Positions 53,766 to 62,121 of a stretch of DNA of 64,000 nt are shown piece after piece. Numbering within the stretch: position 1 is the stretch's first letter; every line of letters begins with the position of its first letter. The DNA is taken from assembly GCA_965199855.1 (NCBI GenBank), contig OZ241326.1:1856001-1920000 (forward strand), read 5' to 3'. This stretch comes from a bacterium (GTDB taxonomy: Bacteria > UBA8248). The position numbers were made by a program, and so were the translations under genes. A model generated the notes under the pieces. The model did no database searches. It saw nothing but the letters and a program-made list of their open reading frames with translations, and had not been told where the DNA came from.

Positions 53766-54953
53766 TTATTGGCCCTCGGGGATGATCACCCTCTTGTCGT
53801 GGTCCGCCGGCAGACCGTTGTTCAGCGTATGCAGCATCCAGTCCGCGATGGCGGGATACATGTCGGCCGCCACCTCGCCCATAGGGTGAAAAACGCCCTC
53901 GTAGAGCCAGAGTTCGCGCGGGCACGTGAGATGCTCGAAGAAAACCTCAATATCGTCCGGCGTGCAAAGCTCGTCCATGTCGCCGGCTACGAGCAGATAG
54001 TCCGACTTCATCCTGCCCGCCGTGGGCAGCCAGATGTCGTCGCGCTCCTCAACGAAGGCGTCGAACGCATCCTCGTCCAGGATGTTCGTCATATACATGT
54101 AGATTCTCTTGAAGTTGGGCTGGGCCTGGTTGAAGATGATGTCCGAAGGCCCCACGTTCGCCATCTGGCCGACGACGGCGCTGACGCGCTCGTCCTGGGC
54201 GGCGATCTCCACCGTCCAGCGGCTTCCCATGCTCATGCCCATGAGGCCGATCTTGGAGGAATCCACCTCTTCGCGCTCTGTGAGCCAGTCGATGACCCTG
54301 CTGCCCGCGCGCGCGTAGTTGTGGTGATCCACCCACACCTGGTTGACGTTGCATTCGCCCTGCCCGGGGCCGTCCATGATGGCGAAGTTCATGCCTCGCT
54401 CGCGGAACCAGTTGTTGTAGGGCAGGAGCCCGTCCTCCTTGATCATGTCCATGCCGGGAATGAGCAGAACGGTCGGCCTGGCGCCCTCGCCTTCCGCCGG
54501 CCAGTAGTAGAAATACGCGCTCTTGCCCGGCTCGAACTCCACCTCGCGCTTCTGGATGCCGCCGCCCATGAGTTCGCGCATTTTCTCGAAGCAGCGCGCC
54601 ACGCCCGCGTAGTATTCCTTTTTGCGGGGATGGCCGTCCACGGGGATGAGGTGCTGGCCCCGCCCGTAGCAGAGTCCCGCGCGGTTGTAGTGCATGGCGG
54701 CGGTCACGCGGTTGCCGGCCTCTGCCGCGGCGATGGCCTTCTTCTCCTGAAGGGCGGCCTGCTTTCCCCACAGGAGCGGAATGGAGCGCCTGCCCGAAAC
54801 CCTTGAATAGACCGCCTGGAGGTCCTGGTGCCGAAAGCCCCTCTCGTAGCGCGTGCCCATGATGCCGGGGTGGAGGACGTCCTCATTCTCGGAGAGCTTG
54901 AGAAAATTGTCGAAAATCCAGTTCTGGTTCGCGCGCGATGCCTGTCGTCTCAT
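53766..54953 (-). CDS. Alpha/beta hydrolase (FrsA / DHPON hydrolase-like)
   Basis: PGMDMIKE, DGPGQGE, GMSMG, VAGDMDEL, terminal FHP. Confidence 0.8.
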   Translation of the reverse strand: MRRQASRANQNWIFDNFLKLSENEDVLHPGIMGTRYERGFRHQDLQAVYSRVSGRRSIPLLWGKQAALQEKKAIAAAEAGNRVTAAMHYNRAGLCYGRGQHLIPVDGHPRKKEYYAGVARCFEKMRELMGGGIQKREVEFEPGKSAYFYYWPAEGEGARPTVLLIPGMDMIKEDGLLPYNNWFRERGMNFAIMDGPGQGECNVNQVWVDHHNYARAGSRVIDWLTEREEVDSSKIGLMGMSMGSRWTVEIAAQDERVSAVVGQMANVGPSDIIFNQAQPNFKRIYMYMTNILDEDAFDAFVEERDDIWLPTAGRMKSDYLLVAGDMDELCTPDDIEVFFEHLTCPRELWLYEGVFHPMGEVAADMYPAIADWMLHTLNNGLPADHDKRVIIPEGQ

Positions 54954-55117
54954 GCCGCCGCCTTCTCCTTTGTCTGCGCGGCGGACGGGCGCGAGTCCCC
55001 TCTTATCGCCGCTCCTGAAGTCAGAAAACACCGGGTCCGGCCGCTATCTTCCAGCCGGGAGCCGTCCGGGTCAACCGCCTCGGGAGATCGCCTTCGGGCG
55101 AGTTTTCGGATGCCGCG

Positions 55118-55146
55118 TTGACGAGGCGGCGCATTTTCCGTAGATT
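55118..55146 (+). promoter_or_regulatory. Candidate sigma70 promoter of metY copy 1
   Basis: TTGACG (55118-55123), 17-bp spacer, TAGATT (55141-55146). Confidence 0.5.
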
Positions 55147-55247
55147 CAGGCGTTCATTTTCTGAAGGCGGCGACCGCGCCGGCCTTTGAGAATCCCGGGC
55201 GGGGCGCTTCCCGCCGCCATTTTCGATGCAATATGAGGAGCCGGGCA

Positions 55248-56540
55248 ATGACAGTAGAATCAAGCAACAGCGAAACAATCGTCCTTCACGCCGGATACCG
55301 CAAGGACGACGCCACGAACGCCGTGGCCGTGCCGATTTACCAGACGTCCTCCTACCAGTTCGACAGCACGGAGCACGCGGCCAATCTCTTCTCGCTGAAG
55401 GAACTGGGCAACATCTACACCCGCATCATGAACCCCACGAACGACATTCTGGAGAAGCGGCTGGCCGCTCTGGAGGGCGGCGTGGGCGCCCTCGCCGTCT
55501 CCTCGGGGCAATCCGCCTCGATGATGGCCGTGATGAACGTCGCGCGCGCCGGCGACAACATCGTGAGTTCGACGGACCTCTACGGCGGCACGTGGAACCT
55601 GTTCGCCAACCAGCTGGAGGACATCGGCATCGAGTGCCGCTTCGTGGACCCCGCAGACCCGCAAAGCTTCGCCGAAGCGACCGACGACAGGACGCGCGCC
55701 TACTACGCCGAGACGCTGCCAAACCCGAAGCTGCGCGTTTTCCCGATCAGGGAGGTCGCCGACATCGGGCGCGCGATGGGGATTCCCCTCATCATGGACA
55801 ACACGGCGGCGCACGGCCTCTGCAAGCCCTTCGAGCACGGCGCGGCCGTCATCGCCTCCTCGTGCACGAAATACATCGGCGGGCACGGCAACTCCATCGG
55901 CGGCGTCATCATCGACGGCGGAAACTTCGACTGGGCGGCGCACCCCGAGCGGCAGCCCTACCTGAACCAGCCCGACCCGAGCTATCACGGCGCCGTGTGG
56001 ACGGAGGCCGTCAAGCCGCTCGGCCCCATCGCCTACATCATCAAGGCGCGCGTCACGCTCCTGCGCGACTCCGGCCAGGCGACCAGCCCCTTCAACGCCT
56101 TCCTGTTTCTCCAGGGGCTGGAAACCCTGCCCCTGCGCATGGAGCGACACTGCGAAAACGCCGAGAAGGCGGCGGACTTCCTGAAAAACCACCCCAAGGT
56201 GAGCGCCGTGATCTACCCGGGCCTCATGGAGGGCGAATTCCGCCGCCGCGCCGACGCCTACCTCAAGGGCGGCTACGGCGGCCTGTGCGGCTTCGAGCTC
56301 AAGGGCGGGAACGAGGCCGGCCAGAACTTCATCAACGCGCTCAAGATGTTCTACCACGTGGCGAACATCGGCGATTCGAGGAGTCTGGCGATTCACCCGG
56401 CGAGCACCACGCACTCCCAGCTCAGCCCGGAGGAGCAGGAGAAAACGGGCGTGACGCCGGGCTACGTGCGCCTCTCCATCGGCATCGAGCACATCGACGA
56501 CATCATCGCCGACCTCTCCCAGGCGCTGGACGCCGCGTAG
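55248..56540 (+). CDS. metY: O-acetylhomoserine aminocarboxypropyltransferase/sulfhydrylase (copy 1)
   Basis: PIYQTSS, GNIYTRIMNPT, LYGGT, SCTKYIGGHG (PLP lysine), ANIGD, HPASTTH. GAGGAG upstream. Confidence 0.93.
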   Translation: MTVESSNSETIVLHAGYRKDDATNAVAVPIYQTSSYQFDSTEHAANLFSLKELGNIYTRIMNPTNDILEKRLAALEGGVGALAVSSGQSASMMAVMNVARAGDNIVSSTDLYGGTWNLFANQLEDIGIECRFVDPADPQSFAEATDDRTRAYYAETLPNPKLRVFPIREVADIGRAMGIPLIMDNTAAHGLCKPFEHGAAVIASSCTKYIGGHGNSIGGVIIDGGNFDWAAHPERQPYLNQPDPSYHGAVWTEAVKPLGPIAYIIKARVTLLRDSGQATSPFNAFLFLQGLETLPLRMERHCENAEKAADFLKNHPKVSAVIYPGLMEGEFRRRADAYLKGGYGGLCGFELKGGNEAGQNFINALKMFYHVANIGDSRSLAIHPASTTHSQLSPEEQEKTGVTPGYVRLSIGIEHIDDIIADLSQALDAA

Positions 56541-56555
56541 AACCGACGGAAAGCG

Positions 56556-56592
56556 AAAAGAGGGCGGCCCCGATCGGGCCGCCCTCTTTTTT
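56556..56592. terminator. Intrinsic terminator, probably bidirectional
   Basis: AAAAGAGGGCGGCCC-CGATC-GGGCCGCCCTCTTTT-TT: 15-bp perfect stem with A and T tracts, between metY and the convergent CRISPR locus. Confidence 0.88.
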
Positions 56593-56679
56593 GGTCGCTA
56601 CATATTGAAAATGAATGAATAAATGGCCAGCACTTAAAGCATCAAATGAAGTTTTCAGATTGGGTTCCCCTGGGCCGGG

Positions 56680-56911
56680 CGGGTCGTCAATCCCCACCGC
56701 ACAGGGGCCTATATCCCGCGCAAAACATCCACACCCTGAACTAGTTGCGGTCAATCCCCACCGCACAGGGGCCTATATCTCCGCGGACAGCGCGTCTACG
56801 TCACGCATTGTTGCGGTCAATCCCCACCGCACAGGGGCCTATATCGCAATGTCACGTCGACCTCAATGTTTGTGGGTTGCGGTCAATCCCCACCGCACAG
56901 GGGCCTATATC
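56680..56911 (-). CRISPR. CRISPR array: 36-bp repeat GATATAGGCCCCTGTGCGGTGGGGATTGACCGCAAC, 3 perfect + 1 degenerate repeat, 3 spacers
   Basis: Identical repeats at 56744-56779, 56810-56845 and 56876-56911. The distal copy is identical over 56686-56715 only. Unique spacers of 30, 30 and 28 bp at 56846-56875, 56780-56809 and 56716-56743. Confidence 0.95.
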
Positions 56912-57057
56912 CCGTTTCATGCAAAACCTTGTTTTCATGCTTCGTCCGGCGTTTTCTCCCATAGAGGAATTCTCTACGCCATGGCTTCGGCTGATTTTTC
57001 GACCCGTTGCCGGGCGCGCCGCTGCGCTCTCGTGGGCTTCCTCTCCTTCACGACGCC

Positions 57058-59004
57058 TCAGCCCTCCATGGCTTTTGTGGCGAGGTTCATCGCCCCGTTC
57101 TCGTCCCTGTCATGCTCCGTTCCGCACTCCGGGCATGTCCACCTCAACCCGGGGTCCGCCTCGTTCTGGTAATCGCATTTCGGGGTGGAGCACTTTCTGC
57201 TCGTATATGCCGGATTTATGTGGACGACGCGAACTCCCTCCCGTTCCGCGCAATTCTTTACGGCGCCGATAAAGACGCCCGGCGCCGCGTCGAACAGTTG
57301 CCCCCGCGATTTTTTTGTATGCTCTCCGCCCTTTTTCTCCTTGTCCTTGAATTCGCGGAGCAGGTTCCCGTCCTCGATCCCTATGGGCAGGCGTTCCGCT
57401 TTGGCTTTGTCCACGATTTCTTTCGCCTTCAGGCGATAAAAGTAGTCGCGCTGTCCGATGAGCCGCTTCACCCGATAATGGTATTCATGGTATCGGCCTT
57501 CCCATGATCTCGCCCATCTCGCTATCGCGTCGCGCGCGGCGTCCTCGTTTTCCGCCAGCGCGTCGGGTCTCTCGCGAAGGGCGAGAACAAGGCTGTAAAC
57601 CGTTTCAAAACTGACGGTTCGCTTCTCGCGCTCCGCGTTGCGGACGATGGCGCGAATGATTCTACGGAATGAATCTTTTTCGTTCGCACCGGCCCATGCC
57701 TTTGTTTTCCTGAGCAATGGCCCGACTGCGAGACCAAAAGCGACCGCGCTCTTGTCGAGAGCGGACTTCAACTTGTTCACGCGCTTGGTGGCGTCCCGCC
57801 ATTCCTCGCGGACGGTGATGTGTTCGGGTTTGAAAGCGGTTTTGGGATCATCGGATTCGCGCTTTATGGCGACGGTCGCCGTTCGCAGCTCCCCCTCGAT
57901 TTCTTTCCAGCCGATGTCGATTCCCATCCCCGCGCGAGAAGAGGGAGCGATGCCGGCGGGCGCGTCGGCTTCAACGAAAAAGCAGACGTGGTATTTGAAC
58001 TTGCCCTTCCCGATGCGGCGGCGAACGAGTTGCGCGTTCTTGATGAGCGCGCCTTCCGGGATGAGGCGGTGCAGAACCAGATCGAAATGGCAATATACGT
58101 CCGAACTCCCCGTTCCCTTTTTCGTGGCGAGCTTGAGGCGGGCGCGGCGAATCCGAGCCTCTTCCCCGTTTGGCTTCTTCCGCCGCCGCTTTTCCCATCG
58201 CCGCTCCAGCTTTTCCAGTTTCTGCTCCGTTTCTTCCTTCGGCAGTTTCTTGTTCCGAATCTTGCGGCGATCCTGCTCGAAAGCCTCCCGCTCATCAAGA
58301 ATGACGAAAGGGCGCTTGTCTTTGTCTTTCCTTTTGCGGAGATCTTCAAAGAAAACGCCGTCTGCGGTTTGTTTTTCCCAAGTGCGGCTGAGGCGGTAAT
58401 GGAAATAACCTGATTTTCTTTTGTGGAATGCGTGAAATCTCAAATTGTAATCACCGGCGATTTCCCCCGCGCTTTTCTTCGTCAACGCTTTGAAGAATTC
58501 GCCTCGTGACGTCCTGAATTTTTCAAGAATATCTCCGGCTGTCTTGCTCATAAGTTCGCACTGATCTACTTGGGCCGCCTCCCGCAAGCGACGTTCAGCC
58601 TCCTTTTTGCACTCCTTCTCCCTGGCGGCGAACTCGGGATTCTCCTTGATGAGCGCGTTCGCCTCCTTGCGCGGCTTCTTGATGTCCTCCCACAGTTTTT
58701 TCCTCTCGTCGATGAGAGCTTCCGGCGGCTCATCGCCTTCGCGCTTCGCCTCGCCAAGCGAGCGTTCGATGATTTCCAGTCTCTCGTCGAGTTTCCGATA
58801 GGCGGGGCTGGCCTCCCGCCGCAGGGAATTATAGGCCGCAACGTCTTTTTCGTGGATTTCGACCAGATTGTTCCGCAACCGGTTGGCTCGCTGGAGCTCG
58901 TTTTCCCCCTCGGCGGGAAACGGCTCCACGGGAACCGCGCCGTATTTCATAACGAACTTTCTGGGTTCTCGCGTTTCCATTTCCTTCTCTTCAAAATAAA
59001 CCAT
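57058..59004 (-). CDS. Compact type V CRISPR effector, Cas12m (V-M/V-U1)-like TnpB-derived RuvC protein; likely start 58980 (640 aa)
   Basis: RuvC-I GIDIGW, Ruv[27 protein letters not shown] zinc finger, Ruv[15 protein letters not shown]. Also [25 protein letters not shown] motifs like those I recall from Cas12m. Lies 146 bp from a CRISPR array. Confidence 0.85.
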
Positions 59005-59080
59005 GGTCGGGGCGAGAGGATTTGAACCTCCGGCCTCCTGCTCCCGAAGCAGGCGCGCTACCAGGCTGCGCTACGCCCCG
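59004..59080 (-). tRNA. tRNA-Pro (CGG)
   Basis: Reverse complement CGGGGCGTAGCGCAGCCTGGTAGCGCGCCTGC-TTCGGGA-GCAGG...GTTCAAATC...GACCA, 77 nt. Confidence 0.96.
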
Positions 59081-59113
59081 ACCCGACGCGGGCGACGGAA
59101 TGGCGGCGCTCCC

Positions 59114-59784
59114 CTACGCCTTCTCCCATCCGTATTTGCCCACGAGCTTCACGAAAACGCAGTTCACCAACTCCTCCGGCGCGAGCAACTCACCCGCCTT
59201 CGACGCGCGGCATCGCGCGAGCGTCTGCTTCTCGCCCTCCCCCAGGGGCATGACGATGCGCCCGCCCGGGGCGAGCTGCCCGGCCCACGGCTTCGGAACG
59301 CGGGGCGCAGACGCCGCGCTCACGATGACGTCGAAGGGCGCCTCCGCCGGCCAGCCGTACGTGCCGTCCGCCGTCCAGAGCATATAATTCGTCAGGCCGA
59401 GAGAATCCAGGCGCGTCCTGGCTCTCTCCGAGAGTTCGGGCACCCTCTCGATTGCGCGAACGGCGCCCGAGAGCCTCGCCAGAAGCGCGGTAAGGTAGCC
59501 CGAACCCGCGCCGATTTCAAGCACTTTCTCCCCGCCCCCCAGTTCGAGCGCCTCCAGGGTGGCGGCCACCATGTAGGGCTGGGAGATCGTTTGCCCGTGC
59601 CCGATGGGCAGCGCCTTGTCGGCGTAGGCGGCCTCCTGGAAGATGTCGGGCGCGAAGTGGTGCCGGGGCACCTCGCGCAGCGCGTCGATCACGCGGGCGT
59701 CCCGAATCCCCCTGGCGACGATCTGCTTCTCCACCATCTGCTCGCGCGCGCTGCGCCAGCGGCTTCGGGCGTCCTCTTTTCCGT

Positions 59785-59800
<16 letters not shown>
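59114..59800 (-). CDS. pcm: Protein-L-isoaspartate O-methyltransferase (start uncertain)
   Basis: [39 protein letters not shown]. Follows surE. Confidence 0.94.

Positions 59801-62120
<2,320 letters not shown>

Positions 62121-62121
<1 letters not shown>

Follow-up and report, generated by a model that had tools for sequence, protein, structure and literature searches.

In a 64,000-nt stretch of a bacterial genome (GTDB lineage UBA8248; assembly GCA_965199855.1, contig OZ241326.1, positions 1,856,001 to 1,920,000; hereafter the window), we identified a minimal type V-M CRISPR locus, which consists of cas12m, a short leader and a three-spacer array and which probably acts as a CRISPR RNA (crRNA)-guided binder of double-stranded DNA (dsDNA). 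We assign the predicted protein as a full-length Cas12m (type V-M, formerly V-U1) and as a divergent member of the branch that the depositors of a solved structure call Cas12m4, the clade-4 assignment being based on their name 'Cas12m4a' and on a FastTree phylogeny. New by these comparisons, within the known Cas12m family, are a divergent cluster of sequences that carries a charged insertion of 45 amino acids, its mini-island on the side of a tRNA gene, and signs of spacer turnover in a locus that has no adaptation genes of its own. The genome of the window is referred to as G000 and that of a sister species with an orthologous locus as G025. Residue numbers follow the 648-amino-acid frame throughout. 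The locus comprises the following elements.

57058..58980, minus strand: cas12m coding sequence, 640 amino acids plus TGA stop (open frame, full-length match to structure 23vu, start as indicated by G025)
56974..57057, minus strand: what remains of a C-terminal tail, namely 27 codons and a TAG that follow the TGA in frame (comparison of alleles and runs)
56912..56973, minus strand: putative leader, from the ancestral stop to the first repeat, ending ...GAAACGG as in G025 (function suggested by its position and by the distal degenerate repeat)
56680..56911, minus strand: CRISPR array, four 36-nt repeats and three spacers (repeat comparison, pseudoknot covariation)
56876-56911, 56810-56845 and 56744-56779, minus strand: three identical 36-nt repeats, GATATAGGCCCCTGTGCGGTGGGGATTGACCGCAAC on the gene strand
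56680-56715, minus strand: degenerate terminal repeat at the end far from the gene, first 30 nt identical
56846-56875, 56780-56809 and 56716-56743, minus strand: spacers of 30, 30 and 28 nt

The assignment to Cas12m is carried by matches over the whole length of the protein. In single-sequence phmmer searches, the best match among solved structures was PDB entry 23vu_A, 'UnCas12m4a', a protein of 614 amino acids (E = 4.3e-55), in an alignment spanning query residues 17-232 and 286-647 and thus both the N- and the C-terminal half; the second-best match was 23vw_A, 'CRISPR-associated DNA-binding protein Cas12m'. A clade profile of 591 positions, built from an alignment of the query and 21 relatives (22 sequences; alignment A1), matched 23vu at 4.5e-223 (positions 3-587), 23vw at 1.5e-67, GoCas12m (8pm4) at 8.5e-42 and MmCas12m2 (8hhl) at 1.3e-36. 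When the known families were compared by profile search and phylogeny, Cas12m structures were matched over about 560-585 of the 591 profile positions, with the N-terminal WED/REC part included, whereas TnpB, LaTranC and Cas12f matched the C-terminus of the profile only (the last ~140 positions, ~440-587). A Cas12m-family effector with an array of its own, as proposed in a sequence-only reading of the window, is thus upheld by full-length matches to structures and profiles and not by a TnpB-like C-terminus alone. The resemblance to MmCas12m noted in that reading was right as to the family; MmCas12m2 itself is distant, being matched by the profile only and, like GoCas12m, undetected in a single-sequence search with the query at E values up to 1.

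Among 1.84 billion representative proteins, we found 1317 matches at E ≤0.001 and just 22 at ≤1e-30. The closest protein outside the query cluster is 36% identical, and the other clade members in A1 are 28-34% identical to the query protein. The FastTree phylogeny, which gives local support only and in which the query cluster sits on a long branch (stem of 1.06 changes per site), places this cluster within a 24-row clade with a local support of 100. It includes 123 long relatives; from the total of 156 proteins, 32 shorter than 480 amino acids and the truncated P0004 were left out, both here and in the count of catalytic triads given below. P0020, which belongs to the same 24-row clade, matches 23vu at 1.3e-157.

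Resemblance to TnpB is confined to the C-terminal part. PF07282 (Cas12f1-like TNB domain), at residues 578-641, is the sole Pfam match. Among the NCBIfam models, NF040570 (TnpB) reaches 89.2 bits, below its cut-off of 100, and extends over residues 519-643 only, with 519-645 as the span of the TnpB models together; NF038281 reaches 34 bits against a cut-off of 425, and NF049972 (Cas12f2) 49.8 bits against 450. What the query shares with TnpB (8bf8, 8exa) and Cas12f is the part from residue 569 to 646, which holds RuvC-II/III and the zinc-ribbon TNB domain (E = 7e-07 with the single sequence, 5e-15 with the profile), but no similarity was detected ahead of about residue 450. If the protein were a transposon-type TnpB next to an array that has nothing to do with it, the matches of its C-terminal ~130 residues to TnpB models would be explained, yet we consider this highly improbable: the TnpB match remains below its curated cut-off while the whole length matches Cas12m structures, cas12m is single-copy in the 3.04-Mb genome, and relatives at 30-42% identity have arrays in the same position with covarying repeats. 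Moreover, no integrase or transposase gene and no transposon ends were noticed in the island that holds the locus, the ends not having been sought with a dedicated tool. TnpB, an RNA-guided accessory nuclease of IS200/IS605 elements with about 400 amino acids, relies on an omega RNA derived from the end of its transposon. The query, in contrast, is accompanied by a CRISPR array, and a sequence comparison revealed no anti-repeat, that is, no stretch of at least 10 nt complementary to the repeat, in 54001-61000. Cas12f depends on a trans-activating crRNA (tracrRNA) and acts as a dimer, according to passages of PMC11013384.

The cas12m frame extends over 57058..59004 on the minus strand and comprises 648 codons from the first ATG, as obtained from the listing of open reading frames and its translation. 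Because the first ATG (59004) falls on the final base of the tRNA-Pro(CGG) gene that ARAGORN places at 59004-59080, and because the orthologous locus of G025 carries a stop codon within the stretch ahead of the second ATG, we place the true start at the second ATG (58980), which gives a predicted protein of 640 amino acids. Both lengths, as well as the four-repeat array 146 nt downstream on the same strand, had been described in the sequence-only reading and agree with the coordinates. The sequence AAGGA is located just ahead of the cas12m ATG. The 3' end of the tRNA-Pro gene is only 24 nt upstream (58981-59003) on the same strand. A scan for terminators returned three terminator-like sites, which is below the shuffle mean.

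The catalytic RuvC residues were identified as D363, E544 and D634, the same three that had been picked out from the letters of the window. This is confirmed by the phmmer alignment with 23vu, which pairs GIDIGW with GIDLGF, IGIED with IGVEN and HDRDEN with HDRDTN and shows that 23vu likewise has an Asp-Glu-Asp (D-E-D) triad, and by A1, in which D363 and D634 never vary and 21 of the 22 sequences have E544. From the intact triad, the sequence-only reading had proposed a possible nuclease-competent or intermediate branch that would stand between TnpB and Cas12m; the comparison with relatives does not bear out such a new branch. D-E-D occupies the triad columns in 104 of the 123 long relatives and in 23 of the 24 rows of the query clade, as read from an automatic MAFFT alignment in which some of the 19 non-D-E-D readings may be misalignments. 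Because D-E-D is the majority state among relatives, because clades 3 and 4 of Cas12m, for which D-E-D (or NED/DND) is the expected triad, are given as D-E-D types in a passage of PMC10442227 that summarizes Wu et al. 2022, and because structures from the same clade have been solved, the intact triad is best regarded as typical of the query branch and not as the marker of a new intermediate form.

Whether such a triad cuts DNA has been addressed in other Cas12m proteins. PAM (protospacer-adjacent motif)-dependent binding of dsDNA and silencing without cutting are described in passages of PMC10442227, PMC11013384 and bioRxiv 10.64898/2026.03.26.714355. In the assays reported in PMC11013384, eight Cas12m proteins, four of them with D-E-D, were compared in a PAM-library assay; none cut dsDNA, six of the eight showed PAM-dependent binding, and the four D-E-D proteins bound in a PAM-dependent manner and left dsDNA uncut. 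According to the same passages, purified MsCas12m and GoCas12m cleaved neither target DNA or RNA nor collateral substrates. A change of the His-Asp-Asp (HDD) site of MmCas12m2 to DED did not restore cutting, which is stated as data not shown in a section of PMC10442227. Our search of the literature found no paper on UnCas12m4a.

These findings bear on the alternative that the query is a nuclease-competent Cas12m, in which the D-E-D site nicks or cuts target DNA or single-stranded DNA in the manner of Cas12f or TnpB, with a guide that needs no tracrRNA. We regard this as rather unlikely. It is in line with the intact triad and HDRDxN motif and with the retention of D-E-D in nearly all clade rows even though their end branches measure 0.5-1 change per site, a pattern suggestive of selection for metal-dependent chemistry. 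That clades 3 and 4 perhaps perform two-metal DNA hydrolysis is put forward in the discussion of PMC10442227, and the assayed proteins may include none from clade 4. On the other hand, all four of these proteins failed to cleave dsDNA, with MsCas12m inactive on target and collateral DNA and RNA (PMC11013384, in part), and the MmCas12m2 variant implies that the triad alone is insufficient (PMC10442227, in part). In addition, PDB entry 23vw, a sibling, bears the title 'DNA-binding protein', and the window allele is devoid of the C-terminal tail. Cleavage of target DNA by this clade is thus possible but unproven. A wider form of this idea, to which we likewise give little weight, is that the branch keeps D-E-D since its RuvC domain is still used on DNA; its members would then be cutters or nickases of ~600-670 amino acids that require one short crRNA and no tracrRNA. 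In that case, the tail-bearing alleles would represent a very divergent example of such enzymes, with the charged 45-residue insertion in addition.

The query resembles UnCas12m4a (23vu, 23vv) in clade, size (614 amino acids in UnCas12m4a) and the motifs GIDxG, IGxE and HDRDxN. It differs from UnCas12m4a by the charged insertion of ~45 amino acids, which in A1 is located at residues ~237-283 and is specific to the query cluster, by a 12-residue insert near residue 175, and by a first zinc-finger cysteine pair of the form Cx4C instead of Cx2C. The four zinc-finger cysteines themselves (C605, C610, C624 and C627) are invariant among the 22 sequences. MmCas12m2 (8hhl, 8hhm, 8hio) and GoCas12m (8pm4) have the family, the domain order and the near-full-length profile matches in common with the query. 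A single crRNA with a pseudoknotted repeat that ends in C(-1) and A(-2) and carries G at -23, as described for MmCas12m2, is predicted for the query as well. Unlike the D-E-D site of the query, the His-Asp-Asp site of MmCas12m2 and GoCas12m binds one magnesium and does not cut, as a section of PMC10442227 describes. The D-E-D variants of Bigelyte et al. 2024, such as MsCas12m, show the canonical triad and a short crRNA that works without tracrRNA (PMC11013384, in part), the latter being predicted for the query; MsCas12m differs in that its first Asp is at position 274, compared to 363 in the query, and in its much shorter N-terminal half. We found no adaptation genes adjoining cas12m or the array among the open reading frames and annotated neighbours, and the locus is in this respect like the typical V-U loci described in PMC11013384 (in part).

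The array lies on the same strand as the gene, with 146 nt between the stop codon (57058-57060) and the first repeat (56911), and its repeat is found nowhere else in the 3.04-Mb genome. The position of the degenerate repeat, at the end distant from the gene, is consistent with transcription that starts on the gene side. We found that the repeat can fold into a pseudoknot in which positions 9-12 pair with 21-24 and positions 15-20 with 29-34. When six repeats of the clade were aligned without gaps, which include those of G015 (another genome of the genus) and of four marine metagenome loci and amount to only three independent types, 60 of 60 cells were paired and 7 of the 10 pairs were changed on both sides. 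These values were reached in 0 of 500 shuffles, and slid controls were 27-52% paired. The covariation thus provides good but small evidence for the predicted pseudoknot. The pairings published for the crRNAs of PmCas12m and MmCas12m2 share the topology of two crossing stems (for MmCas12m2, in a section of PMC10442227), and the 3' end of the repeat, with C at -1, A at -2 and G at -23, fits both crRNAs as far as their published descriptions were available.

Arrays downstream on the same strand, with 36-nt repeats and a 66-nt period, were also found in G025, in G015 and in four of the six examined metagenome loci of the clade. These loci were obtained with a six-row alignment subset (A4), which gave seven in total; L105, where the match is at the end of a 1.8-kb contig, was left out of the examination for repeats. 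A search of viral contigs with a 15-row alignment of the WED segment (A3) yielded three pattern matches, none of which was confirmed. Another 80 genome-contig loci, collected with the generic motif HDRDxN[AG]AxN, were not used, since their similarity to the query is limited to its last 50-190 residues. An Rfam scan detected only the tRNA above threshold (RF00005, 67.4 bits).

Taken as a guided dsDNA binder, the locus would work as follows. The array would be transcribed on the minus strand, and cas12m might be read through from the tRNA promoter, because the start codon lies just 24 nt past the tRNA. Cas12m would bind the pseudoknotted 36-nt repeat and mature crRNAs with a guide of ~17-20 nt, without tracrRNA. 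The resulting complex would bind tightly to PAM-flanked phage or plasmid dsDNA and thereby block transcription or replication. New spacers would be supplied in trans, for example by the Cas1-Cas2 pair of a type II-C system.

With regard to the present spacers, the arrays of the window and of G025 have identical repeats and three spacers each, none of which is in common; the three G025 spacers have a GC content of 33-55%. In runs X4, X8 and X14, contigs break off at the repeats and leave parts of the array uncovered. Compared to the own genome, the spacers gave no match beyond 14 exact positions or 17 of 18, and blastn against phages and plasmids returned only matches with E values of 5-6. Exact searches of IMG/VR, each made with the 20 repeat-proximal nucleotides of a spacer, gave 0 matches for spacers 1 and 2 of the window and for the three G025 spacers. 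Spacer 3 was found 20/20 in nine related phage contigs (L117-L125), with 23-24 of 28 positions matching overall. The match falls at the beginning of an exonuclease-like gene (phrog_7339), with holin and tail genes next to it (e.g. L122 3698-3717). The 20-mer is conserved among these contigs while its flanks vary, and the 5' flanks (TCG, GTG and GCG) reveal no consistent PAM. By a rough estimate, three 20-mers searched over ~1e11 positions, an assumed size, would produce 0.1-0.5 chance events. The contigs have a GC content of 48-52% compared to 67% in the host and bear no similarity to the host genome, and among 115 spacers tested from G000, G015 and G025, no further one matches these contigs. 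In view of the contig GC content, the lack of a second spacer match and the lack of host similarity, we did not count this protospacer as established.

The turnover of spacers between the two species without a local Cas1-Cas2 argues for supply in trans. In G000, a complete type II-C-like system is located outside the window, ~934 kb away, at G000:C1:975035-981400 (L104 5035-11400). It consists of Cas9 (a frame of 992 amino acids; TIGR01865, 3e-203), Cas1 of the NMENI type and Cas2, and the only Cas1 and Cas2 of the genome are those adjoining this Cas9. Its array contains 24 repeats of 36 nt and spacers of 29-30 nt, which is the same 36+30 geometry as in the V-M array, and its repeat, read from the cas genes, runs ATTATAG...CACAAC, the ends of which by eye resemble those of the V-M repeat, GATATAG...CGCAAC. 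Both G000 and G015 carry the type II Cas1, for which G025 gave no match and which occurs in 7 of the 23 genomes of the genus. The type II-C Cas1-Cas2 pair is thus a possible trans source of spacers and only a lead, given three genomes and a likeness noted by eye.

The alleles of the gene were compared. The proteins of the window and of G025 are identical at 534 of 669 positions, and the ratio of non-synonymous to synonymous substitution rates (dN/dS) is 0.28 over 669 codons, with a dS of 0.41. This ratio indicates that the gene has been under purifying selection for most of the time since the two lineages split. The TGA stop codon of the window (57058-57060) is specific to the strain, the codon being CGA (Arg) in run X4 and GAA (Glu) in run X8. 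In the protein collection, a basic tail of 28 residues is kept in 9 of the 11 long alleles and the TGA stop occurs in the window allele alone; other members of the clade carry basic tails as well. One further allele, P0165 (631 amino acids), diverges over its last ~70 residues in a frameshift-like manner and is without the four zinc-finger cysteines and the third Asp. In G025, the orthologue is a pseudogene, with an in-frame TGA at the codon that is CGG (R514) in the window. The strain differences are mostly non-synonymous, with 10 residue changes among the 11 differences listed for X4 and 15 among the 24 listed for X8, in a table that holds three rows besides those listed. From these data, the window allele is the truncated minority form, which may work less well than the common allele, and the nonsense and frameshift alleles indicate that the system is being lost in some lineages.

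A decaying remnant might therefore be suspected, in which the island was gained once before the split of G000 and G025, worked, and is now being lost, with the window allele inactive or nearly so; we consider this improbable, slightly more so than a nuclease-competent enzyme. The premature TGA of the window, the in-frame TGA of G025 and the frameshifted P0165 would all be expected under it, as would tiny arrays of three spacers in both species, the mainly non-synonymous strain differences and the absence of a type II Cas1 from G025. However, the frame of the window has no other interruption over 640 codons and retains all conserved residues, and its protein ends 9 residues past N640 and is no shorter than the shortest relatives (P0017, P0013). 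The disruptions are recent, because dN/dS is low (0.21) also downstream of the G025 stop, in addition to the long-term value of 0.28. Furthermore, 9 of the 11 long alleles are full length and the repeats are perfectly conserved.

Several observations nevertheless weigh against the preferred interpretation as a guided dsDNA binder. Binding, crRNA processing and the PAM at this locus are all read across from homologues. The assayed D-E-D proteins may belong to another clade, as the first Asp of MsCas12m at position 274 suggests, and the binder result may not transfer to the query. Because the triad is strictly retained, some catalytic activity would seem to matter. A promoter scan found 0 promoter-like sites at the locus. 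Only one of the six tested spacers matches IMG/VR, and chance is a live explanation for this match. Finally, there are the signs of decay, i.e. the TGA that removes the tail, the frameshift in P0165, the nonsense codon of G025 and the predominance of non-synonymous strain differences.

The surroundings of the locus provide information on its origin. Two elements at its edges are listed here.

59004..59080, minus strand: tRNA-Pro, anticodon CGG (ARAGORN; Rfam RF00005, 67.4 bits), whose 3' end abuts the island
56560..56592, no strand assigned: hairpin of high G+C content that has T runs on both strands and follows the gene of a Cys/Met-metabolism pyridoxal phosphate (PLP) enzyme (read from the sequence)

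The flanking genes encode housekeeping functions, namely the Cys/Met PLP enzyme, tRNA-Pro, PCMT and SurE. The GC content is 52-60% across 56500-59000 compared to 62-70% outside. To the left, homology to other genomes ends at 56593-56599, with the hairpin just outside, and the hairpin is conserved in four other genomes of the genus and missing from the list of the terminator scan; it could end transcription of the array, a role suggested by its form and place. The tRNA-Pro/PCMT segment is present in 23 of 23 genomes of the genus. The spacing from the PLP-gene terminator to the tRNA 3' end is 2407 bp in the window and 210-911 bp in nine other genomes of the genus. Because the same flanks enclose unrelated DNA in these nine genomes, we interpret the module as a low-GC island of ~2.4 kb between the PLP-gene terminator and the 3' end of tRNA-Pro.

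Within the family (42 genomes) and the phylum (51 genomes), Cas12m was detected in the same three genomes, which are that of the window, G025 and G015. In G025, the orthologue (L006 1519-3546) occupies the same site directly downstream of tRNA-Pro and is accompanied by the identical repeats. The Cas12m of G015 (L101 1489-3408, minus strand), a more typical protein and a member of a different subtype, has ~603 amino acids, a D-E-D triad and a place in the same clade, is 42% identical to the query and is encoded at a different site. Its array (L007 546-1407) contains at least 13 repeats. Within this array, the units 945-1010 and 1011-1076 are identical and thus represent a duplicated spacer.

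The locus adds one divergent cluster to Cas12m, a family under development for base and epigenome editing, and opens no new class. Of modest interest are the compactness of the system, which as a whole is a 2.4-kb island at a tRNA 3' end in which no mobility gene was seen, and the finding of two sister species with identical repeats, no common spacers and no local Cas1-Cas2. The question of whether D-E-D Cas12m proteins cut has already been raised in print and partly answered in the negative, in passages of PMC10442227 and PMC11013384.

Two minor observations were made in addition. The block of tRNA-Pro, PCMT and SurE is flanked by two paralogous Cys/Met-metabolism PLP genes, at 55233-56540 and ~60700-62121 (both plus strand), and weak cross-matches between the two paralogues were seen in the locus comparisons. 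Outside the window, a crude repeat scan revealed a repeated unit of ~190 bp with CGATTCTGGATTGTTCAAG at G000:C1:1228650-1229200, which is not a CRISPR array.

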